DNA of 12,530 nucleotides from a virus: the UHGV virus genome UHGV-1654121. The stretch is one strand, 5' to 3'. Numbering within the stretch: the stretch's first letter is position 1; each line of letters starts with the position of its first letter. The position numbers and the translations under genes were made by a program. Shown piece by piece: positions 137 to 10,991 of the stretch. The notes beneath the pieces were generated by a model. It did not search any database. It saw only the letters and a program-made list of their open reading frames with translations, and was not told where the DNA came from.

Positions 137-349
137 ATGAAAAAAATAACTTCTAATTTGATCGCCCTTGAGGTCGGACATACGGTTTCAATTGACGATG
201 ATGGGGCAGCAGCCATACTCACTGAACTGCCAACAAAGTCTTTGTTACTTGACATGAAAGACGCAACCGCATACATCTTTGAGCTAAAGGGCAAGTGCTT
301 CACTCTCATCAATACCGGCTGCGGTTCAGTAGCCGTCCGCACTATTTAA
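137..349 (+). CDS. Small hypothetical protein (70 aa)
   Basis: Complete ORF with ATG start at 137; weak GGA-type purine stretch 6-12 nt upstream; mixed charged/hydrophobic composition; same orientation as downstream genes. No recognisable motif. Confidence 0.35.
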   Translation: MKKITSNLIALEVGHTVSIDDDGAAAILTELPTKSLLLDMKDATAYIFELKGKCFTLINTGCGSVAVRTI

Positions 350-375
350 CACCCCCCTCCCATCCTCTCTAGCGC

Positions 376-408
376 CTGTACGAACAGATTAGATGCCTGT
401 TCGTACAG
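376..408 (+). promoter_or_regulatory. Perfect 12-bp inverted repeat (ctgtacgaacag N9 ctgttcgtacag) preceded by a 21-nt polypyrimidine tract; stem-loop or operator candidate
   Basis: Read directly: 376-387 ctgtacgaacag is the exact reverse complement of 397-408 ctgttcgtacag, with a 9-nt loop; 350-370 is C/T only (cacccccctcccatcctctct). No T-run follows, so it is not a canonical intrinsic terminator. Confidence 0.4.
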
Positions 409-461
409 TGATAAATTACGCACATCAGAAAACAAATTGTTTTAACAACAAGGAAATTCTA

Positions 462-2690
462 ATGTCCAAAAAAACCACCAAAGCTGTACTGAAAGAGGTG
501 CAGGATTTTCGCGACTGTGTAAAACGAGTTGTAGCGATGCTTTCAGGTAAACAGATACCTGTTGCAGAACGAGGCAATGAAGCATATGTCCGCTATAACC
601 GGCGCGGCGAACCAGTGCTGGTAAACATCCCATCTATACCGGACGACGCGTCGCCAACCCTCATGAACGTAGTGCGTGGTTTTCTCGACCATGAGGTGGC
701 CCATATTCTCTTTACTGAACCGAAAGTCGCAATGCAGATGCGCGAAAGAGGAAAGGCTCCGTCTACGGGGCTTTGGAATGCGCTGGAAGACGTTTTTATT
801 GAACGCAGAATGGGGCAGGTCTTTAACGGAACCCGGCGTAATTTACTTGCAACACAGAGTCTGGTTATCGACAAATACTTCAGGAATAAAGTACCAGAAG
901 CGGTTTTAGCCTGTCACGGAGACCAGCGTGAATTGTTTTTGAAATTCTTCCTTTGCCCGGTCGTCCGCGCCTGGGATGGACAAAGCCCCTTCATCGATTT
1001 TATGGAAGAACACTGGCGCCTTATCGAGAGGCCGGTAGCCTTACTAAAGGAGCATGGTATAGACGTGGCCGTTCGCAATATGTCGAACACTGAGGATTGC
1101 GTGAAGGTCGCTGCTGCTATAGCCCAAATCATGCAGGATATGAAAGACAAGCCAGAGGGCAAATTACCAGAACTTAAATCATCTGCCAGAAAGCCGTCGG
1201 AGAGCAAAGACGAGTCCGAGGAAACGCCAGAATCAGGTGACGAGCCGTCTCATGGTGACTCTGCATCTAAGCCTGCCAAAGGCGAAGGCGATGACAAGGA
1301 AGAACGAGAAGATGATGCATCAGAAGAGGAAGATTCTGGGGATTCCGATTTGCCTGATTCGTTAGATAAGGACTTACCTACACACGTTAAAGATATTAGT
1401 GATACAGAAAGTAAATATACAGAAGCAGGCCACGAAGAGTCAGGAGACACCCCAGAATCCGATGCTATCGGCATGAAATCAAGTGACTCTGACACCGATG
1501 GTGATGACGGTGAGGACTCCGATACTGATCGTGGGGAAACTGAAGAAGACGTCGAAGGCAAAAAAAATAAAGATGGTGCGGAAGTGCCCAAAGACAGTGA
1601 GTCTGGCTTTGTTCCTGCGCCGGATGAAATGACTCTGGAGGAGGCGCTAAAGGCGCTCGACGAGATGGAAGACGGAATCGGTGAAATGACCGAAGACGCA
1701 CTGTCGGCCACCATCAGCAAAGAGCTTATGAGCGTCTCACCTTCTGATTATCGGCCATACGATCGATCATACGACTTTATCGGGTTGATTGATGGAGCCG
1801 AAGAGCATGTGAAGCGCACCAGAAAGACGTTCGGTGCAATACCAATGCACTCACCAGTCGACCGCTACCGTATGGTGCCAGAAGGCAGAAAACTCTTTGA
1901 ACTGAAAATCGAAAAACATCTGTCTGCAGGCGTTTCTTCGACGCTGGCCAAAGACCTGGAGCGGGCCATCGCCAGCCGCAACCGAGTTCAGTTTATACCT
2001 GGTCAGAGGCGTGGGCGGATACATGGCGCGAGCCTGTATCGTCTGGCAATGAACGACGACCGAGTGTTCCGCAAGAAGGAAGACCATAGAGCGGTGAACG
2101 CGTGTGTCCAGCAGGTCATCGACTTGTCCGGCTCAATGGATGGCGTGAAGATTCAACTGGCCCTAGCCAGTGCCTATACCATTGCGGATGCTTTAGATCG
2201 TATCAATGTCCCCAACATCATCACCGGCTTTACCACGTTCGGTAGCCCAGATTATGAAACCAGGTCGAAGCGCGGGTTTACACGCTTCGAGGCGCTCATG
2301 CTGCCCATTATCAAAAACTGGAATGAGAAAGCAAACTCTCCAGAGATCCGTGCTCGCATGGGATGCGTATGTGAGACGTTCCCCCTGCTCAATAACGTCG
2401 ATGGTGAGAGTGTCGCGCAACTGGCTACCCTGTTTGCAGGGCGAATGGAGGACAAAAAGATCATGCTGGTTATGAGTGATGGGGAGCCATGTGCTACAGG
2501 TAGTGGATTCCATCAGCATTTACGAACCGTCACCAAAGAAATTGAGACCTTGAGCGACATCGAACTGATGGCTATCGGCATTCTGACCGACGAACCACGG
2601 CGTTACTACAAAAATTACGCACTGGTTAACAGTGTTGAAGAGTTAGGGCCGTCAGTCGTCACTGAGTTATCTCGTATCATTCTTGGGTAA
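462..2690 (+). CDS. CobT-like vWA-domain protein (partner of a MoxR/CobS-type AAA+ ATPase), with HExxH motif and long acidic low-complexity segment
   Basis: Start set at ATG 462 (in frame with track ORF 393..2690) because AAGGAA at 450-455 lies 6 nt upstream and the 393 ATG is buried in the 376-408 hairpin. HEVAH encoded at 690-704; D/E/S-rich low-complexity segment about 1150-1700; MIDAS-like DLSGSMDG encoded around 2121-2135 followed by vWA-like sequence (ITGFTTFG...MSDGEP). Confidence 0.75.
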   Translation: MSKKTTKAVLKEVQDFRDCVKRVVAMLSGKQIPVAERGNEAYVRYNRRGEPVLVNIPSIPDDASPTLMNVVRGFLDHEVAHILFTEPKVAMQMRERGKAPSTGLWNALEDVFIERRMGQVFNGTRRNLLATQSLVIDKYFRNKVPEAVLACHGDQRELFLKFFLCPVVRAWDGQSPFIDFMEEHWRLIERPVALLKEHGIDVAVRNMSNTEDCVKVAAAIAQIMQDMKDKPEGKLPELKSSARKPSESKDESEETPESGDEPSHGDSASKPAKGEGDDKEEREDDASEEEDSGDSDLPDSLDKDLPTHVKDISDTESKYTEAGHEESGDTPESDAIGMKSSDSDTDGDDGEDSDTDRGETEEDVEGKKNKDGAEVPKDSESGFVPAPDEMTLEEALKALDEMEDGIGEMTEDALSATISKELMSVSPSDYRPYDRSYDFIGLIDGAEEHVKRTRKTFGAIPMHSPVDRYRMVPEGRKLFELKIEKHLSAGVSSTLAKDLERAIASRNRVQFIPGQRRGRIHGASLYRLAMNDDRVFRKKEDHRAVNACVQQVIDLSGSMDGVKIQLALASAYTIADALDRINVPNIITGFTTFGSPDYETRSKRGFTRFEALMLPIIKNWNEKANSPEIRARMGCVCETFPLLNNVDGESVAQLATLFAGRMEDKKIMLVMSDGEPCATGSGFHQHLRTVTKEIETLSDIELMAIGILTDEPRRYYKNYALVNSVEELGPSVVTELSRIILG

Positions 2691-2785
2691 TAGCTTTACC
2701 CTTAAAAATAAGTAACTACTTACTATACAGCCTAATATATTTCTATAAGATATACCCCACAAACGACAAACAGTAAGGAAAAAAC
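2691..2785 (+). promoter_or_regulatory. AT-rich intergenic region between the vWA and AAA+ genes; possible internal promoter plus RBS
   Basis: 95-nt AT-rich spacer (ttactatacagcctaatatatttctataagatata) ending in AAGGA at 2775-2779, 6 nt before ATG 2786. No exact T4 late-promoter TATAAATA box found. Confidence 0.2.
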
Positions 2786-4021
2786 ATGACCGCTACTGCA
2801 CTACAGCAAGAAGAACATTTGCCGGAAGCCATCGTCTGCAAGTGGTGTGGCAAATCCTTTCATTACCTGAAATCCCATATCTCTATGGGCCGTTGCGAGA
2901 ATATTCCTGAGTCTGCGAAGGGTCTGGACGTGGACGAAGTGGTGAAGATGTACACCTCTGCGTTTCCAGATGAACCAACGATCTCTCGCACGGCACTGGC
3001 CAAACTCAATGAGAAGCGTGCCGAAAAAAATTCATGCGAAGGAAAGGTAGCGGAGATTAGCGCACATCCGGGCTACGCAGGAACGGTCGAATACAAGACC
3101 GAACTGGTGGCCGCGCACGAGCTGCTTGGCGTAACGATCAAAGAGCTGGGAACGCCACGCGGAAAGCCACTACAGGTGACAGTCAACGTCAACACGCCCT
3201 ATCCGGAGTTCGTACCGGAAGCGAAGAAAAACTATGTGTATGGCGACTTCGACCTGATCAAAGACATCTTTATGATGCTGGAAATCGGAATCCCGGGTTA
3301 TCTCTGGGGCCATGCAGGAACCGGTAAATCTTCTCTTCCTACGCAGCTATGTGCCCTGCTAAATCGACCACTGATCCGCGCCCAGCATACGGCATCTATG
3401 GAGGAAGCGCACGTTACAGGCCAGATCCTCGCTCGCGATGGTTCCACCTATTTCGAACCGGGTTTACTAGCGCTGGCGATGAAAAATGGTTGGGTTTACC
3501 TCGCTGATGAATATGACTTCGCGTTCCCGCAGATTCTGGGTGTGTATCAGCCAGTTCTTGAAGGAGAGCCGCTGATCATCAAAGAGGCAACTGCGGACTG
3601 GCGCCGCATCACCCCGCATAAACGCTTTGCCTTCATTGGCACTGGCAACACTAACGGCTCTGGCGACGAAACAGGTCTCTATCAAGGCACAAACATCCAG
3701 AACGCAGCGAACTTCTCGCGTTTTGGCATTGTTTCAAACGTGAAGTACATGAGTACGAAGGCAGAAGTCAACATGCTGGCTGAAGCAGGCGTCATCCGCG
3801 AATACGCCGAGAAGATGGTGAAGTTCGCGAATCTTATCCGTGAAGGTTATGAAAAGCATCAGATTAGCCAGCCAATCGGGCCTCGTGAGCTGCTGCTGTC
3901 CGCCAAAATCGGAATGATGCGCGGTGATTTCTCTGCCGGCATCGAAAAGTCGTTTATCAATAAACTTCCATCCACGTCTGCACAGGCAGCGCGTGAAGTG
4001 GTTCAGAAGATCTTTGGTTAA
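2786..4021 (+). CDS. CobS-like / MoxR-family AAA+ ATPase
   Basis: Walker A GHAGTGKS encoded at 3308-3331; downstream ...WVYLADEYDFAFPQ... consistent with a Walker B region; strong RBS; immediately downstream of the vWA partner, the usual pairing for MoxR/CobS-vWA systems. N-terminus carries a Cys/His cluster (CKWCGKSFHYLKSHISMGRC). Confidence 0.8.
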   Translation: MTATALQQEEHLPEAIVCKWCGKSFHYLKSHISMGRCENIPESAKGLDVDEVVKMYTSAFPDEPTISRTALAKLNEKRAEKNSCEGKVAEISAHPGYAGTVEYKTELVAAHELLGVTIKELGTPRGKPLQVTVNVNTPYPEFVPEAKKNYVYGDFDLIKDIFMMLEIGIPGYLWGHAGTGKSSLPTQLCALLNRPLIRAQHTASMEEAHVTGQILARDGSTYFEPGLLALAMKNGWVYLADEYDFAFPQILGVYQPVLEGEPLIIKEATADWRRITPHKRFAFIGTGNTNGSGDETGLYQGTNIQNAANFSRFGIVSNVKYMSTKAEVNMLAEAGVIREYAEKMVKFANLIREGYEKHQISQPIGPRELLLSAKIGMMRGDFSAGIEKSFINKLPSTSAQAAREVVQKIFG

Positions 4022-4023
4022 TC

Positions 4024-4227
4024 GTGCGTAAAGGATGTTTCGGCTCTCTTATCGCAGCGTCTGAAACTGGCAGTGCTTGTTTGGCATGTCCGGATAGCCC
4101 CGAGTGCCACCAGTCAGCCAAAGAGGTTGCGATTTCGATGTATGGGAAGTTCGTTGGCTTCCCCAATGACAAAATCAAGAAAACCAGAAAGGTAAAAGCA
4201 CATGAAGGCTCTGATGGTCAGAACTGA
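4024..4227 (+). CDS. Possible small Cys-rich protein (67 aa, GTG start); doubtful
   Basis: ORF begins with GTG 2 nt after the upstream stop and overlaps the polymerase start by 26 nt; contains CLACPDSPEC (CxxC...C). No convincing RBS for the GTG; internal ATG at 4138 has AAGAGG 11 nt upstream. Could equally be non-coding leader. Confidence 0.2.
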   Translation: MRKGCFGSLIAASETGSACLACPDSPECHQSAKEVAISMYGKFVGFPNDKIKKTRKVKAHEGSDGQN

Positions 4228-7200
4228 CTTCTCCCTGGGAGAGTCAGCTCTAAAAGCAGAAAACGCGATGAAAATCGCGAGAGACGCTGGCTACACCGCT
4301 GTCATTTCCGCTGACAGCATGAACATTGCCAGTGTGATCCCCCTGCAGCGTGCCGCTGGCGACGACATGGCGGTTATTTGTGGTGTTAAGCTGAATGTGG
4401 TCGACGATCCGACATACGAGCACCGCGCTCGCTTGGCGAAAGAGTCAGGAAGATGTATGGAATCATTAGTTCGTGATCGCAGCTACTGCTTCACGGCACT
4501 GATAAAGAATGAACAAGGTTATCGCGACGTGTGCGAACTGATGACCTTAGCGAACAAGCGCGAGCAATTCTACTTTGTCCCGCGTCTGGCGCTTGAGCAG
4601 CTGGCAGCCGCATATGCCAAAGGCAACATCATCCTGCTGACGTCCGACATTGGCAGTGTATTCCAGCGCCGGGACTTCGCAAAAATTATCGGGACGCTGG
4701 TCACAGCTGGCGGTCGCGATAACTTCTACAGCGTGGTTTATCCGCACCCTACCCCATTCTACGACCAGATTAACGTCCGGGCGATGAAAGTGGCGAGCGC
4801 ACTGAAAATAGAGCCAGTGGCGTTCTATCCCGCTTATTACGAAGCGATCGACGACGCTGACATTAAAGACATTGCGCACATGGTTACGAACAACATCAAA
4901 ATCGACCAGCCGCATCGTCTGCGCATCCCCCACCAGCGAGATAACGCTGTTAATGGTCGTCGCCATCTCCTTGAAGCGCTGAAAGCCTTCTCCGTTCGCA
5001 TGGGCGTACCGGTAACAGCTGCAATGGCCTCAACAACGCAGGACACCATTATTGAAGCCTGCACATGGCGCTGGCATGAACTGCCACCAGCACTGCCCAA
5101 GATGGCAGACGACGAGCCTGCAACGCTGATGAAGCTGGCTGTCGCGGGGCTACGCAAGCGTCTAACTACTAAAGAGTTTGGCTACACACCACCGGCTTCT
5201 GAGCACCGAGTGTATGTTGAGCGACTGAAGTACGAAATGGACACACTGACCCGTCTGGGCTTCTGTGGCTACTTCCTGATGGTACGCGATCTGATGAATC
5301 ACAGCCGTGAAACTGGCATTCCTGTCGGGCCAGGTCGTGGTTCCTCTGCCGGTTCTCTGGTGGCGTGGTGCATAGGCATAACCAACGTCGATCCTATCCG
5401 TCACGGTCTTCTGTTTGAGCGTTTCATCAACCCTGAACGTCTTGACTTACCGGATGCGGATCTGGACTTCAGCCAGGCACGTCGTCATGAGGTGATCGAG
5501 TATCTGAATGAACGCTATGGCGAAGATTACGTTGCCGGTATTCCAAACTTCACCTATCTGGGCGCCGCTTCTGCGCTGCGAGACACTGCGCGTATTTACG
5601 GTGTCGACGCTGCGGATATGGCGGTATCCAAAGAGTTCAAGAATCTGGAAGACGATAGCCTGTCTCTGGAAGAGCTGCGCGAGCAACTGGCCAGCCTGGA
5701 CAAATACGCCACGAAAAACCCGGAAGCGTTCAAAGCGGCGTGTAAGCTACAAAGCCTGATGCGTGGTTTTGGCCGTCATGCAGCGGGGATGATCGTCGCT
5801 GGCGTTCCACTGGTAGAGCGCACGCCCGTCGAGCTGCGTGGCAACGCTCGCTGTATTGCATTCGATAAACGTTACTGCGAGGCAATGGGGCTGATTAAGC
5901 TGGACGTTCTCGGTCTGGCAACGCTCGATCTGCTGGATAGCGCGAAACGCTACATCAAAGAGAGTACCGGGGAAGACATCAATCTCGATGCTATCCCACT
6001 GGACGATCGCAAAGTTCTGGATGGGTTCGCTGCAGGGTACACTCAGGGCGTATTCCAGCTGGAGTCCGGCCCCATGCGCAAGCTGCTTAAAGATCTGGGC
6101 GGTGGCATTGAGCCAATGAGCTTCAAAACCGTTGTCGCCACGACCGCACTCTTCCGACCTGGCCCGATTCAATCAGGCATGTTGGACGACTATGTCTCCG
6201 TGGCCAAAGGCTTCATGGCTCCACAGTCGCTGCACCCGGTACTGGACGAGCTTACCGCGGAAACCAACGGCGTGATTCTGTATCAGGAACAGACGATGAA
6301 CGCGACACGATTGCTGGCCGGCTTCACGATGGCCGAAGCAGATGGTGTGCGTAAAGCGATCGGTAAAAAGGATATGGAAAAGATGAAGAGCATGGGCGAG
6401 AAGTTCGTCGTTCAGGCTCAAGCTGGTTGGATCGACGTTGAGATGGAAGACGGCACAACGCAGCGTATTCACCGCGCGGAACACTTCAAATGTGAGGACG
6501 GCGCACTGCGGACGGTCGAAGAAGCGCTGGAGGCAGGTGTAAAATTGCCTATGGCTGCTGTACGCGTTACAGGGTCACAACCGGGCTTGTCTGAGACGAA
6601 AGCTAAGGAGATCTGGGATGCCTTCGAGAAGAACGGTGCGTATCAGTTCAACAAATCACACTCCGTTGCTTACTCGCTGATCAGCTATCAGTCTATGTGG
6701 TTAAAGACACATTACCCTGCTGAGTTCTTCGCTGCTGCGCTCACCATTCTGGGCGAGGATAAGCACCAGGGCTTAGTTAAAGATGCGCTGACCTATGGCA
6801 TTCGCGTATTGCCACCAGACGTTAACGTTTCATCTAACCGAATTGAGATCCGCACGCTGGAAGACGGCAGTCAGGTTCTGTATGCACCATTCTCTGCTGT
6901 GAAAGGCTGCTCTGAGAATGGTTGCCAGGCCATCATGAGAGCGCGTGAGAAAGTTGGCGGCAAATTCGAATCACTGGCGCAATTTGAGGAATCTGTCGAG
7001 AAGCGAGCATGTAACAGCCGGGTACGCGAGTCGCTGCAAAAAGTCGGTGCGTTCGCATCGATTGAGCCTGGCTGTCTGCCAGCGACAGATCCGGAACGGC
7101 TGCGCGACCAGGCAGAGTTGATGGGTAATCTGGTGATCGACGCTGTAAAAGCCTCTCGACCGTTCGAGATGAACCCTAAGCGCTCTGCTGAAGTAAATGT

Positions 7201-7720
7201 ACTGATGACGCGCATGGCGGCCGAAATGGGGCTGGGAGACAATCTAATCCGTCCAAGCATTGGTATTAAGCCAAAAATCATGGTTATTCTGGACAACGCG
7301 AACGGCAATGATGGGCGTACCGGCTACTTCATGGAGAACGGCTACGACGACTTTAAGGCGAAGTTGCTTACTGCCGGCGATCTGCGTATGGGCGATCTCT
7401 ACGTCACCGGCGTGTGCAAAAAGGTGAAGGACAAAGAGAAGGACTACACCAAAGACGAGATCGGTCAGTTCACCGACTTTATGCGTGAAGAGATCAATCT
7501 GGTGCGTCCGACCTATGTACTGACGTGTGGCAGCCGGGCGACGTCGCTCTTCAACAACAAGAGCAAACCATCCGACCTGGTTGGACGCAAAGAGTATCTG
7601 CCGGAGCTGGATGCGACCGTTTTCTACGGATTTAACCCGAATATCCTTTACTTCCGACCGGAAGAAGGAGAGCGACTGGAGGCCATTCTGACTGATATTG
7701 CGGAGACGATAAATAAGTAA
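4202..7720 (+). CDS. DnaE-type DNA polymerase (Pol III alpha-like catalytic subunit) with degenerate N-terminal PHP domain and atypical C-terminal domain
   Basis: Family-C polymerase signature blocks present: GPGRGSSAGSLVAWCIGIT..DP....LLFERFINPER, catalytic PDADLDF (Asp codons at 5453, 5459, 5465), AFDKRY, LYQEQTM, FNKSHSVAYSLISYQ..WLKTHYPAEF, then an HhH-like region. N-terminus (MVRTDFSLGES...AVISADS) lacks the His-x-His and TDH metal ligands of active PHP domains. The last roughly 150 aa (about 7259-7717) do not resemble the OB-fold/tau-binding tail. Confidence 0.9.
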   Translation: MKALMVRTDFSLGESALKAENAMKIARDAGYTAVISADSMNIASVIPLQRAAGDDMAVICGVKLNVVDDPTYEHRARLAKESGRCMESLVRDRSYCFTALIKNEQGYRDVCELMTLANKREQFYFVPRLALEQLAAAYAKGNIILLTSDIGSVFQRRDFAKIIGTLVTAGGRDNFYSVVYPHPTPFYDQINVRAMKVASALKIEPVAFYPAYYEAIDDADIKDIAHMVTNNIKIDQPHRLRIPHQRDNAVNGRRHLLEALKAFSVRMGVPVTAAMASTTQDTIIEACTWRWHELPPALPKMADDEPATLMKLAVAGLRKRLTTKEFGYTPPASEHRVYVERLKYEMDTLTRLGFCGYFLMVRDLMNHSRETGIPVGPGRGSSAGSLVAWCIGITNVDPIRHGLLFERFINPERLDLPDADLDFSQARRHEVIEYLNERYGEDYVAGIPNFTYLGAASALRDTARIYGVDAADMAVSKEFKNLEDDSLSLEELREQLASLDKYATKNPEAFKAACKLQSLMRGFGRHAAGMIVAGVPLVERTPVELRGNARCIAFDKRYCEAMGLIKLDVLGLATLDLLDSAKRYIKESTGEDINLDAIPLDDRKVLDGFAAGYTQGVFQLESGPMRKLLKDLGGGIEPMSFKTVVATTALFRPGPIQSGMLDDYVSVAKGFMAPQSLHPVLDELTAETNGVILYQEQTMNATRLLAGFTMAEADGVRKAIGKKDMEKMKSMGEKFVVQAQAGWIDVEMEDGTTQRIHRAEHFKCEDGALRTVEEALEAGVKLPMAAVRVTGSQPGLSETKAKEIWDAFEKNGAYQFNKSHSVAYSLISYQSMWLKTHYPAEFFAAALTILGEDKHQGLVKDALTYGIRVLPPDVNVSSNRIEIRTLEDGSQVLYAPFSAVKGCSENGCQAIMRAREKVGGKFESLAQFEESVEKRACNSRVRESLQKVGAFASIEPGCLPATDPERLRDQAELMGNLVIDAVKASRPFEMNPKRSAEVNVLMTRMAAEMGLGDNLIRPSIGIKPKIMVILDNANGNDGRTGYFMENGYDDFKAKLLTAGDLRMGDLYVTGVCKKVKDKEKDYTKDEIGQFTDFMREEINLVRPTYVLTCGSRATSLFNNKSKPSDLVGRKEYLPELDATVFYGFNPNILYFRPEEGERLEAILTDIAETINK

Positions 7721-7725
7721 TAAAG

Positions 7726-7750
7726 AAAAACCCGCCAAATGGCGGGTTTT
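7726..7750. terminator. Bidirectional rho-independent terminator between convergent genes
   Basis: aaaaa-CCCGCC-aaat-GGCGGG-tttt: 6-bp GC stem (7731-7736 / 7741-7746), 4-nt loop, A-tract upstream and T-tract downstream, placed 6 nt after the polymerase stop and overlapping the last codons of the convergent - strand gene. Confidence 0.7.
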
Positions 7751-8309
7751 ATGCGCAAATTTTTTCGCAGTCTTGCGAGTGACTGAGTGAGCGAGTAACT
7801 CTCTCCACCTCATGAATGTCGCCCAACGATCTTATACGCAGGGCAAGATTCCACGTACTCAATGTGCGCGCGTTACGCACCAGTTCTTCCCGTGCTTTTT
7901 CGTCTTTGCTGTCAAGACGACCGCAGTCGTTCAACCATTTAGCGACTTCCGCCCAGTCCCAGAGTGGAGACTGACCGCTGATACGCTGAACAGGGCAAGG
8001 AAAATCACCTTTGCCACGTAATCCGTCTTTAAGCAGAGTAATAGCCTGGCGCGTTAAGCCAGAGAGTTGAGCAATATCGCTCAAGCCTACCAGTGCTGAA
8101 TCTACCGATTCCACCACTGCGCCAATGCCTGCTGTTTCAATATCAAGGATTGCCGATTCGATTGCTTCATCTAAAGATTTAGCTTCTCGGTCAAATTCTA
8201 CATACACTGAGTTTCCGTAGTAGCAAATGAGCGCATCATCGCAACCGTGGCTATACAGAGCATCTGCGACTACACAGTACTGACTACAGGTTATCAGAAT
8301 TATCCCCAT
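7749..8309 (-). CDS. DNA-binding protein with C-terminal excisionase/AlpA-type HTH; N-terminal domain weakly HicB-like
   Basis: Only - strand gene in the window. C-terminal half LSDIAQLSGLTRQAITLLKDGLRGKGDFPCPVQRISGQSPLWDWAEVAKWL fits the HTH followed by a conserved W..EV..WL pattern seen in AlpA/excisionase-like HTH domains. N-terminal half (YSHGCDDAL...DREAKSLDEAIESAILDIE) loosely resembles the HicB-type antitoxin fold. No obvious SD upstream of the ATG at 8309. Confidence 0.55.
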   Translation of the reverse strand: MGIILITCSQYCVVADALYSHGCDDALICYYGNSVYVEFDREAKSLDEAIESAILDIETAGIGAVVESVDSALVGLSDIAQLSGLTRQAITLLKDGLRGKGDFPCPVQRISGQSPLWDWAEVAKWLNDCGRLDSKDEKAREELVRNARTLSTWNLALRIRSLGDIHEVERVTRSLSHSQDCEKICA

Positions 8310-8376: not shown

Positions 8377-8850
8377 ATGATAAAATTGATATACGAAAAT
8401 AAGTATATAGATAACATTATGAGCACCGATATCTACGAAAAAATCATGTCCGATCTGGAGTTCGACCGCGACAATCTGGAGGAAGTCTGGCGTCAGCAAC
8501 CGCGCCTGTTGATGGAGTATGGCTCTAAGCTGGCGCGGGCAGAACGTGAGGTTGCAGATGCAAAACTCTCTCTCGACGCGATCGAGGCAAAAATCTATGA
8601 CAACGAGCGTAAGAGCTTGAGTATGAATGGAATTAAATTTAATGAATCCGTACTGGAAGCGAAGGTTAGAACCAACCCGCAATACCTCGCAAAGCGCCAG
8701 AAACTCGACGATGCTCGACACATTGCAGACCTGTACAAGCACGCTGTAGCCGCCTTCTCCCACCGCCGCGATATGATTGTCCAGGCGTCGAAGATGGCTA
8801 TCGTAGAGATAGAGCGTCTGGGGGCCGAACGATTCCATTTACCCCGTTAA
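8377..8850 (+). CDS. Coiled-coil protein, possibly a UvsY-like recombination mediator
   Basis: Charged, helix-rich 157-aa ORF co-oriented with the downstream SSB; length and coiled-coil character resemble UvsY, but no signature motif is confidently matched. Start uncertain (ATG 8377 or ATG 8419; neither has a clear SD). Preferred over the overlapping - strand ORF 8329..8838, which has antisense-like L/R/C/F-rich composition. Confidence 0.5.
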   Translation: MIKLIYENKYIDNIMSTDIYEKIMSDLEFDRDNLEEVWRQQPRLLMEYGSKLARAEREVADAKLSLDAIEAKIYDNERKSLSMNGIKFNESVLEAKVRTNPQYLAKRQKLDDARHIADLYKHAVAAFSHRRDMIVQASKMAIVEIERLGAERFHLPR

Positions 8851-8969: not shown

Positions 8970-9986
8970 ATGTCTAAGTCATTACTTGATCTGCTTAACA
9001 AGACCCGTGGCGATATTGCTTCCAAACGTGGCAATAACATTGATTTGACCCGTCTGAAAGATGGCAATAACTATCTGCGCATTTTTCCGAACAAGGACGA
9101 TCCGAATGGCGTGTTCTTCCAGACTTTCGGTATGCACTACGTTAAGCATCAGAATGAGGAAGGCAAAGATGTAACCACCGCCTATATCTGCGAACAACAC
9201 ACCCACGGCCACGCTTGCCAGCTGTGTGAGATGGTTATGGAAGGTCGCGCTCGCTTTAAGGGCAACAAAGCGATGGAAGAGCGCATTAATAGTATGCGTG
9301 CTACGCCGCGTTATCTGGTCAACGGTGTTCTGTCTGCGCGTGAAGACTTTGCGGACGCAGAGAAATGCCAGCTGATTGAGCTGCCGTCTACGGTCTTCGA
9401 CGATATCTGCAAAGTGATGTCCGAAGATATTGCGGACGATATTGGCAACCCACTGAGCAAAGAAGAAGGCTATGCGTTCCTGATTAAACGCACCGGTTCC
9501 GGTCGTGACACCAAGTACGACGTATCCCCGAAACGTAAAGTCTACAAAGGCGACATTCCTGAGAAGCTCTGGACTACCCAACACGATCTGATCGCATATG
9601 CGAACCAGGCTGACGAAACTCGTTTGCTGTCCACGGCTCGCACTATGGGTCGTCTGATTGGTATTGCGGCTCCGGCAGCAACTATGTCCTCACCAGCCAT
9701 TTCTTCCGCTGCAAAATCAGCCGCAGCTGGACTGCCAGGCTTTGGCTCTATCACTGGTCATACGGAAGGCGCAGCTGCTGTCGCTACAGCACATACTCCG
9801 GCGCCAGAGTCCACCAGCCTGGTTGATGAAGAGATCCTGCGTGCCGCTGAAGCTGAGTTCAAACCGGAAGAAGCGAAAGCTCCGGAAGCCACCGAAGCCG
9901 CAAGTGCTTCAGCATCTGCTGCCGCTGCATCTGTACCAGCTGATGAAGGTCTCGATAACCTGCTGGCTGAACTGGACGCTCTGTAA
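8970..9986 (+). CDS. T4 gp32-like single-stranded DNA-binding protein
   Basis: AAGGAG at 8958-8963 with a 6-nt spacer. N-terminal block LRIFPNKDDPNGVFF and His/Cys cluster H60...C74-x8-C83-x2-C86 (encoded about 9147-9227) parallel the gp32 Zn-binding subdomain (H-x12-C-x9-C-x2-C in T4). Ala/Ser-rich linker and acidic C-terminal tail (...DEGLDNLLAELDAL) are typical of SSB partner-interaction tails. Confidence 0.8.
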   Translation: MSKSLLDLLNKTRGDIASKRGNNIDLTRLKDGNNYLRIFPNKDDPNGVFFQTFGMHYVKHQNEEGKDVTTAYICEQHTHGHACQLCEMVMEGRARFKGNKAMEERINSMRATPRYLVNGVLSAREDFADAEKCQLIELPSTVFDDICKVMSEDIADDIGNPLSKEEGYAFLIKRTGSGRDTKYDVSPKRKVYKGDIPEKLWTTQHDLIAYANQADETRLLSTARTMGRLIGIAAPAATMSSPAISSAAKSAAAGLPGFGSITGHTEGAAAVATAHTPAPESTSLVDEEILRAAEAEFKPEEAKAPEATEAASASASAAAASVPADEGLDNLLAELDAL

Positions 9987-10002
9987 TCCCATAACGTGAC
10001 CA

Positions 10003-10031
10003 GTAAGGCGTCTGCGGACGCCTTACTTTTT
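10003..10031 (+). terminator. Rho-independent terminator downstream of the SSB gene
   Basis: gtaaggcgtc-tgcg-gacgccttac followed by ttttt: 10-bp stem (10003-10012 / 10017-10026), 4-nt loop, T-run 10027-10031; located 17 nt after the SSB stop codon. Confidence 0.75.
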
Positions 10032-10046
10032 GGAAGGAGTGTACCG

Positions 10047-10991
10047 GTGAATTATCTCTTTGTGGACGGTAACAGCCTGGGCTATTACCACCAGCAATCC
10101 GACAAATTACACAACGGCGAGATGGAAGTTCAGGCGGCTTTTGGCTTCGTGAAGAACGTTCGTCGTTACGCCTCAATTCTCCATGCCCGGCCAATGATCT
10201 TGTGGGATGGATTCAGCGACAAACGTCGCGACTTCTACCCGGAGTACAAAGCGAACCGCGACGACGACCCGGACATGAAGAAGATGAAAGAAGGCTTTGC
10301 CATCCAGAAGCCGTACATCTTGAAAATGATGACCGCGCTGGGCGTTAACCAACTCATTGCAAAGGACGCAGAAGCGGATGACCTGGCTGGAATGCTGGTC
10401 TCTCGTCTGGCTCCGCAGCCGACTGTTGACCATATCTATCTGCTAACGGGCGATGGCGACTGGCTCCAGCTTGTTCGTGAGAACGTGAGCTGGATAAGCC
10501 TGCGTGAAGACGCCAAGCACAAGCAGGTGAACTTCGAACAGTTCGCAGAGCTGACCGGTCTGCCGACCCCACGCGCGTTTCTGGAAGCGAAAGCGTTGCA
10601 GGGCGATAACTCGGACAACATCAAAGGCGTAGGTGGCATTGGTGATGGTGGCGCGAAAGAGCTGCTTCATGAATGGGGAAGCGTGGCCGCAATGGTACGC
10701 GGCATTAACGACGGTTCCATTGTCATCAACAAAGGTCGCTATAAGACGGCATTCAACAAGCTGGCAAAGAACGCCTTCAACGAGAAGACGGGCTGCCGGA
10801 TGCTCGAAGCCTTTAAGCGCAACATGATGCTGATGAACCTTATCGACACAAAATTCCCACCCAGCGAAATCGAGTCGATTAAAGGCGCACGCGATATGAG
10901 CGCCTTTGAACAGATGTGTTACGAGCTGAATTTCCGTTCGTTTCTGGAAGATCTGGAAGTGTTTGTTCTGCCGTTTGAGAGGTATTGCTGA
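10047..10991 (+). CDS. 5'-3' exonuclease / flap endonuclease (FEN, T4 RNase H / Pol I 5'-exo family)
   Basis: Conserved FEN blocks: (M)NYLFVDGNSLGYY, ILWDGFSDKRRDFYPEYKANRDD, EADDLAGML, LLTGDGDWLQLV, H3TH-like GDNSDNIKGVGGIG. Start placed at GTG 10047 (GGAAGGAG at 10032-10039, 7-nt spacer) rather than track start 9996, because the intervening sequence is the 10003-10031 terminator. Confidence 0.85.
   Translation: MNYLFVDGNSLGYYHQQSDKLHNGEMEVQAAFGFVKNVRRYASILHARPMILWDGFSDKRRDFYPEYKANRDDDPDMKKMKEGFAIQKPYILKMMTALGVNQLIAKDAEADDLAGMLVSRLAPQPTVDHIYLLTGDGDWLQLVRENVSWISLREDAKHKQVNFEQFAELTGLPTPRAFLEAKALQGDNSDNIKGVGGIGDGGAKELLHEWGSVAAMVRGINDGSIVINKGRYKTAFNKLAKNAFNEKTGCRMLEAFKRNMMLMNLIDTKFPPSEIESIKGARDMSAFEQMCYELNFRSFLEDLEVFVLPFERYC

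Follow-up and report, generated by a model that had tools for sequence, protein, structure and literature searches.

The virus genome UHGV-1654121 raises a question about the far end of a replicative polymerase. In the 12,530-nucleotide stretch analyzed here, referred to throughout as the window, an intact open reading frame (ORF) encodes a DnaE-like polymerase, i.e. a C-family enzyme of the Pol III alpha type, and a preliminary description made from the sequence alone had proposed that the last part of this protein resembles a family-4 uracil-DNA glycosylase (UDG) with altered catalytic motifs. Several questions follow from that proposal; does the tail truly have a glycosylase fold, what is left of the residues with which a glycosylase works, and what might such a domain do when it is attached to a C-family replicase? 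We find that the tail of the polymerase has a UDG-superfamily fold that is closest to family 4 and that nearly all of its canonical catalytic and cofactor features have been replaced. As to its function, we weigh below a role in DNA handling against several alternatives.

The relationship to family 4 is evident from both sequence profiles and structure prediction. The NCBIfam model of family-4 enzymes (TIGR00758, UDG_fam4) matches the tail with an E-value of 1.9e-8, at 34 bits, which does not reach the curated cut-off of 125, and a phmmer search of the tail against the Protein Data Bank (PDB) returns only family-4 UDGs as best matches (E 0.012-0.27). When a profile built from 14 homologous tails is used instead, the same PDB search gives 4zbx at E 3.4e-13, 1ui0 at 5.4e-13 and 1l9g at 3.2e-11, with UdgX at about 2e-8. 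As checks on its proposal, the preliminary description had named a Pfam search with the UDG profile PF03167 and a structure model followed by a fold search. The former gave a match to the isolated tail (E 0.0014, 19.2 bits; 15.0 bits in the whole protein) that stays below the gathering score of 24.3 bits; precomputed PF03167 matches are present in the homologs P0102, P0117 and P0118, and distant DnaE fusions score 30-90 bits. The latter pointed to the UDG superfamily and to no different fold. An AlphaFold2 model of residues 965-1172, with a predicted local-distance difference test score (pLDDT) of 84.9 and a predicted template-modeling score of 0.83, has the alpha/beta UDG fold with its four parallel beta strands and can be superposed on solved UDGs. 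The top Foldseek matches are 1l9g, 4zbx and 1ui0, with E-values of 2.5e-11 to 8e-11 and TM scores of 0.73-0.79 over about 188 columns of about 191 residues; UdgX follows, and after it TDG, MUG and family 5, with weaker similarity to families 2 and 5. Among the viral models of BFVD, it matches both UDGs encoded by phages and the UDG-like domains that belong to phage PolA, that of SP-15 included. A chance resemblance of motifs is ruled out by the E-values of TIGR00758, the 14-tail profile and Foldseek, and a divergent OB fold or tau-binding domain is ruled out since no such domain is matched and the fold search gives the UDG superfamily only. The C-terminal sequence and location of the domain were correctly described, while its start was not; rather than at position 7259, the domain begins at about nucleotide 7163 and includes, at residues ~992-1008, the equivalent of the family-4 N-terminal helix.

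Having the fold of a glycosylase does not make the tail one. HMMER alignments give the same family-4 equivalences that had been proposed from motif spacing, in that AGDLRMGDLYVTGVCKK aligns with the family-4 'AG..R.D.Y.TN.VKC' segment and CGSRAT with the second strand and its G..A, and they also bear out the altered catalytic motifs, with LDNANG in place of GE(A/G)PG and NPN in place of HPS. At the level of single residues, Asp1031 occupies the Glu position of GE(A/G)PG, Gly1070 the position of the uracil-reading Asn, Met1044 that of the stacking Phe in 'GrPF', and Asn1145 that of the His in HP(S/A). The cysteines of the 4Fe-4S cluster are gone as well: there is no CxxC in residues 988-1030, the Cys of 'KC' is Lys1074, and the later Cys position holds Phe or Thr. 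In the SSU5 lineage, to which the polymerase belongs, the acidic Asp1031 of motif A is therefore the sole survivor among these canonical features. Because each defining catalytic and cofactor feature fails despite clear descent, we class the tail as a UDG-fold, family-4-derived domain and not as a family-4 UDG.

The body of the protein is that of a DnaE-type polymerase. TIGR00594 scores 628 bits against a cut-off of 434, and the PHP domain, the Pol3 core, the fingers and the (HhH)2 region are all present (Table 1), the last of these being alignable to residues 795-895 of Escherichia coli Pol III alpha and 852-946 of the Taq enzyme. The model of cellular DnaE1 (NF004226) reaches 676 bits, below its cut-off of 1002, and its match stops at residue ~744. 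Neither an OB fold nor a tau-binding C-terminal domain (CTD) has a Pfam match anywhere in the 1172 residues, and the HhH domain ends at residue 955, in agreement with the earlier proposal that the UDG-like domain replaces the OB/tau-binding tail of cellular DnaE. This replacement is also stated for a DnaE-UDG variant in the part of PMC3919608 that describes it.

Table 1. Features of the window, with nucleotide positions counted from its first letter
Feature	Residues	Position	Strand	Basis or remark
CobT-like vWA protein		393..2690		
MoxR/CobS-like AAA protein		2786..4021		
dnaE-like gene, C-family (Pol III alpha type) polymerase	1172 aa	4202..7720	+	Intact ORF, Pfam domains, SSU5 identity
PHP domain	6-156	4217..4669	+	Pfam PF02811, E 1.5e-11
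Pol3 catalytic core and fingers	309-571 and 574-740	5126..6421	+	Pfam PF07733, E 5.6e-73; PF17657, E 8.2e-45
(HhH)2 / beta-binding-domain region	866-955	6797..7066	+	Pfam PF14579 (HHH_6), E 1.4e-16
Candidate internal beta-clamp-binding motif QAELMG	970-975	7109..7126	+	In flexible linker
UDG-fold domain, family-4-derived, degenerate	~988-1172 (~185 aa)	7163..7717	+	
Motif A equivalent, ILDNANG	1029-1035	7286..7306	+	HMM alignments to 4zbx, 1ui0, 1l9g
YVTGVCKK, equivalent of family-4 'Y-I-T-N-v-v-K-C'	1067-1074	7400..7423	+	Profile alignments
Motif B equivalent, FNPN	1144-1147	7631..7642	+	HMM alignments
G+C-rich hairpin (10 bp) between A and T runs		7727..7750		Separates convergent dnaE and AlpA-like regulator genes
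AlpA/excisionase-like regulator		7749..8309	-	Convergent with dnaE
UvsY-like candidate		8377..8850		
gp32-like single-stranded-DNA-binding protein (SSB)		8970..9986		
5'-3' exonuclease		9996..10991		

Is this degeneration peculiar to one clade, or is it shared by the family? A word-indexed homolog search with the 173-residue tail alone yielded close fragments only, and the diversity of homologs came from a full-length search, from tblastn against phages, in which DnaE proteins from nickie-like Pseudomonas and RHEph10-like Rhizobium phages show the same tail at 25-28% identity, and from an exhaustive search of 1.84 billion representatives with the tail profile. This last search gave 1325 relatives at E<=1e-3, 133 of them at E<=1e-10. 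Two kinds predominate among the best 150 of the 1325, namely DnaE proteins ~1080-1140 residues long with the domain at the C terminus and proteins of ~380-400 residues that consist of HhH, a clamp-like motif and the UDG-like domain and that look like the C-terminal halves of split DnaE genes. Residues were counted over 99 polymerase-attached representatives. The motif-A acid position holds Asp in 82, Glu in 6 and other residues in 8, and its Asp is invariant in the 14 aligned tails. A small residue (Ser, Ala, Gly or Thr) stands at the 'Asn' position in 91 representatives and Asn in 4, while the 'His' position has Asn (58), Ser (23), Thr (12) or His (4), followed by a motif-B Pro that is kept in 97. 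The stacking position is unconserved (Gly, Met, Leu, Ala or Thr), and the complete canonical Glu/Asn/His set is found in three representatives. In other words, Asp, a small residue and Asn, Ser or Thr are the norm in the phage DnaE-UDG fusion family. Little or no variation is seen at Tyr1067, Thr1069, Lys1073, Lys1076, Gly1110, Gly1128 and Pro1146.

Despite these losses, the tail is not a decaying remnant. Measured against a Klebsiella homolog with 82% nucleotide identity, the ratio of nonsynonymous to synonymous substitution rates (dN/dS) in the UDG-fold domain is 0.025, equal to that of the polymerase core, which rules out decay; the tail is functional in some sense and under purifying selection that matches the core. 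An antisense ORF of 189 residues opposite the domain (7244..7813, minus strand) was judged spurious because the plus frame is under this strong selection and continues the polymerase. Relatives at earlier stages of change can still be found. CxxC is retained in 45 of the 99 representatives, the tail of phage nickie has CDGC and a later Cys, and the DnaE fusions P0263, P0266 and P0271 have a GEAPG-type motif A, 'TN', 'HP' and strong PF03167 scores. Because of these retained cysteines and canonical-type motifs, descent from an active Fe-S enzyme is indicated, and the simplest history would start with the joining of an active Fe-S family-4 UDG to a phage DnaE, followed by loss of the excision residues in most lineages, with the SSU5 clade as the most reduced of the DnaE-UDG fusions. 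The series from canonical through Fe-S-retaining to fully degenerate domains represents a natural set for timing the loss of excision and its replacement by whatever function came after.

Between the HhH region and the UDG-fold domain lies a second element of interest, the hexapeptide QAELMG. It resembles the internal beta-binding motif of E. coli alpha, 920-QADMF-924 (PMC3201878), and its placement is similar too, in that it begins 12 residues past the alignable end of the HhH region and just upstream of the UDG-fold domain, the E. coli motif likewise lying just after HhH. Q970 is invariant in the 14 tails (nickie has QKELLP and RHEph10 QLELLP), Gln is present in 83 of 90 aligned representatives, and the segment has a pLDDT below 50 in the AlphaFold2 model and is thus predicted to be flexible. 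From this candidate motif we infer that the polymerase probably still uses the host beta clamp, and its retention would weaken, without removing, the idea that the UDG fold serves purely as a clamp substitute.

What, then, might a degenerate glycosylase do at the end of a replicase? The preliminary description suggested a non-catalytic or altered-specificity module that senses uracil or lesions, a reasonable conjecture. With about even confidence, we favor a non-excising DNA-handling module that stands in place of the OB/tau tail. The UDG-derived domain would grip or scan template DNA beside the active site, at the position taken by the OB domain in cellular DnaE, QAELMG would tether the polymerase to the host beta clamp, and uracil excision has most likely been lost, judging from the residues. 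Of the four canonical positions in the pocket or in catalysis, three have changed; with a variable stacking position, neither Asn nor His in place, and lineages (8 representatives) that lack the motif-A acid, the evidence leans against a defined base pocket. There are precedents for UDG folds as polymerase accessories; the UDG-like domain of SPO1 and T5 has been proposed as an intrinsic processivity factor, and vaccinia D4 together with A20 is a processivity factor (PMC3201878). Structures of SP15-like PolA place the UDG domain in front of the active site, on the 5' template strand. A DNA-handling tail would thus be analogous to the degenerate UDG-like domains of N4/T5-type PolA, to the UDG of SP15-like PolA and to poxvirus D4. 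Several considerations weigh against this proposal. An Asp1031-type residue is kept at the motif-A acid position in 82 of the 99 representatives, family-1 UNG has Asp at that very position, and MUG/TDG-type enzymes function without the His, and for these reasons an unconventional glycosylase retains a share of the probability. Additionally, the clamp motif is a candidate by sequence resemblance, and a search of a paper library for biochemical or functional work on this polymerase returned the architecture report PMC3919608 only.

Such an active glycosylase, which we consider unlikely, would use Asp1031 as its water-activating base and a pocket enlarged by Gly1070, and, by analogy with the N-terminal UDG of SP15/YerA41-type PolA, it would clear the template of uracil, or of some other damaged or modified base, ahead of synthesis. 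The motif-A acid in 88 of 99 representatives, the conserved D-x-P turn and motif-B [NST]-P, and the strong purifying selection on the domain are all consistent with catalysis; the coupling of excision to replication has been demonstrated for PolA fusions, and because P0263, P0266 and P0271 keep fully canonical motifs, the DnaE fusion appears to have begun as an active enzyme. Set against this are the three of four changed positions, an unconserved stacking position and eight acid-free lineages, which fit a scaffold better than a base pocket, and scores far under the curated family-4 cut-offs (34 vs. 125 bits for TIGR00758). If catalysis is gone, could recognition have stayed? A dead sensor would bind uracil or abasic sites in the template and stall or modulate the polymerase, somewhat as the read-ahead uracil pocket of archaeal family-B polymerases does. 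The fold is inherited from a uracil-binding ancestor, the catalytic His is lost as an acidic and polar pocket rim is kept, and the domain sits at the C terminus, where DnaE has its OB domain, which in Pol III alpha structures is placed near the single-stranded DNA template. We nevertheless find a sensor highly doubtful, since the uracil-specificity Asn and the stacking Phe are lost and the stacking position is variable, making specific recognition of uracil unlikely.

A different kind of role would be mainly one of protein-protein contact, with the tail as an adaptor that replaces the tau-binding CTD and links the polymerase to a replisome partner, such as the helicase, primase or gp32-like SSB that the element itself encodes. 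The tau-binding CTD is indeed absent, both by Pfam and in the description of the variant in PMC3919608, and the replicon has genes of its own for helicase, primase, ligase, SSB, FEN and RecA, with no tau or clamp loader annotated in the region of SSU5 that was read. The synteny of the replication module is kept across SSU5, nickie and RHEph10, and vaccinia D4 acts through a protein partner, A20. However, the same type of domain is found on the unrelated PolA of very different phages, which argues for a generic DNA-directed role, and the invariant lysines fit contact with DNA; a purely adaptor-like tail therefore seems quite improbable to us. It is likewise unlikely that the tail represents a new class of glycosylase, defined by Asp, a small residue and Asn and lacking the Fe-S cluster, or a non-cleaving reader of template lesions. 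If it did, base surveillance would be coupled directly to a C-family replicase, the first case of a read-ahead or repair-coupled mechanism to be described in an enzyme of the Pol III alpha type.

The polymerase gene itself shows several variations in the homologs. The SSU5 clade has a ~55-residue insertion between the fingers and HhH (window 6437-6796, residues ~746-865; GWIDVEMEDGTTQRIHRAEHFKCEDGALRTVEEALEAGVKL) that is absent from the 1118-residue homologs P0117 and P0118. In Klebsiella L009 (CP101896.1, a phage-plasmid, 301..4553), dnaE is split into ORFs of 787 and 389 residues by a 233-residue NUMOD4/HNH-like, homing-endonuclease-like ORF (2661..3362) inserted at codon ~787, and the homing-endonuclease split of the Klebsiella variants falls within the same segment as the insertion of the SSU5 clade. 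In some distant DnaE-UDG fusions (P0256, P0248 and P0249), the polymerase core is interrupted by intein or LAGLIDADG sequences. In the close homologs P0101, P0108 and P0129, a truncated DnaE is joined to a region with a RecA Pfam match, perhaps through a deletion that fused it to the recA-like gene downstream.

The window belongs to the replication module of an SSU5-type phage-plasmid. Its polymerase gene is 95.7% identical in nucleotides to the dnaE of Salmonella phage SSU5 and 99.6% identical to that of an E. coli plasmid. It occurs in 805 plasmid records of PLSDB, from Klebsiella, Escherichia, Enterobacter, Yersinia (63), Salmonella (49) and others. Phage-plasmids of the SSU5/pHCM2/pMT1 type abound in Klebsiella, E. 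coli, Enterobacter, Yersinia and Salmonella, and it is with this polymerase that they replicate. The gene order, CobT-like vWA, CobS/MoxR-like AAA, DnaE-UDG, gp32-like SSB, 5'-3' exonuclease and (RecA), is common to SSU5-type phage-plasmids, Pseudomonas phage nickie and Rhizobium phage RHEph10; the CobT/CobS-like pair adjoins the replicase in this conserved order although the identity of the polymerase tails is only ~25%. Besides the replication genes named above, nucleotide-metabolism genes are annotated in the SSU5 region that was read, and no clamp, clamp loader, tau or separate UDG is annotated there. Within the window, the CobT-like protein has a long acidic, Asp/Glu/Ser-rich run of low complexity at residues ~250-420, between its CobT N-terminal region and its C-terminal vWA domain. 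A 67-residue ORF (4024-4227, plus strand) overlaps the start of dnaE by 26 nucleotides, in the position of the annotated SSU5_051 (204 nucleotides), which lies immediately 5' of SSU5 dnaE. Downstream, the hairpin that follows dnaE is probably a bidirectional terminator for this gene and the convergent regulator. In SSU5 and in Klebsiella phage ST13-OXA48phi12.3, dnaE is followed by a 426-nucleotide hypothetical ORF (SSU5_053; SSU5 50153-50578); judged by coordinates, without an alignment, the window apparently has no counterpart and passes from dnaE to the terminator and the convergent regulator.

The preliminary description had implied that a UDG domain on a DnaE-type enzyme would be new, and this it is not. 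Timinskas, Balvociute, Timinskas and Venclovas (NAR 2014, PMC3919608) reported, from Yersinia pestis and Salmonella enterica, a 'DnaEX' variant that ends in a UDG domain. As described there, the variant has the same PHP-Pol3-fingers-(HhH)2-UDG order, with OB and CTD replaced, is carried as an additional polymerase by the same kind of replicon in Yersinia and Salmonella, and differs in nothing essential, the domain being called 'archaeal-type UDG, PF03167'; the passages on the variant pass without comment over degenerate motifs, a clamp-like motif and phage distribution. The GenBank note on gp048 of Rhizobium phage RHEph10 reads 'uracil-DNA glycosylase-like' on a DnaE, Pfam already matches the domain in homologs, and a survey of viral replication (PMC3201878) noted of the C-terminal region of viral C-family polymerases only that it is unlike the E. 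coli enzyme. The DnaE-UDG fusion is thus already known. To it we add the residue-level degeneration, the Fe-S remnants and canonical relatives, the clamp-like motif, the strength of selection and the breadth among phages, split genes included; these additions refine a known architecture and do not constitute a new one.

How does the tail compare with other UDG folds? With the family-4 enzymes (Thermotoga maritima TM0511, 1l9g/1vk2; Thermus thermophilus UDGA, 1ui0; and the Sulfolobus tokodaii enzyme, 4zbx) it shares the fold over ~190 residues, N-terminal helix included, as well as Y-x-T, the K of 'vKC', the G of 'alG', the G of 'RG' and the P of motif B. Unlike them, it lacks the 4Fe-4S cysteines, has Asp for Glu, Gly for Asn, Met for Phe and Asn for His, and is fused to a polymerase instead of free-standing. 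Phage family-A polymerases with N-terminal UDG or UDG-like domains, those of the SPO1-like and SP15/YerA41-like groups being active and those of the N4-like and T5-like groups degenerate, also have a UDG fold attached covalently to a replicative polymerase, whereas here the polymerase is of family C, not A, and the domain C-terminal, not N-terminal. The tail profile matches the PolA N terminus of the SPO1 group (37 bits), the T5-type motif-B segment 'ISPAQLHFKPE', phrog_17 and the PolA representatives P0264, P0269 and P0272 with their D-x-P motif A; in a four-sequence search, the link to an N4-like PolA was not significant (E 0.14), and tblastn with P0269 gave no clear named clade. Vaccinia/mpox D4(E4)-A20 again presents a UDG fold as a polymerase accessory apart from its role in repair (PMC3201878, PMC4889955), but D4 is family-1-type, catalytically competent and a separate subunit that is joined through A20 to a family-B polymerase, and it is related to the tail at the superfamily level only. 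UDG folds are now seen attached to replicases of family A, of family B (in trans, in poxviruses) and of family C, and this spread over three families points to a general, repeatedly evolved DNA-scanning accessory for viral polymerases.

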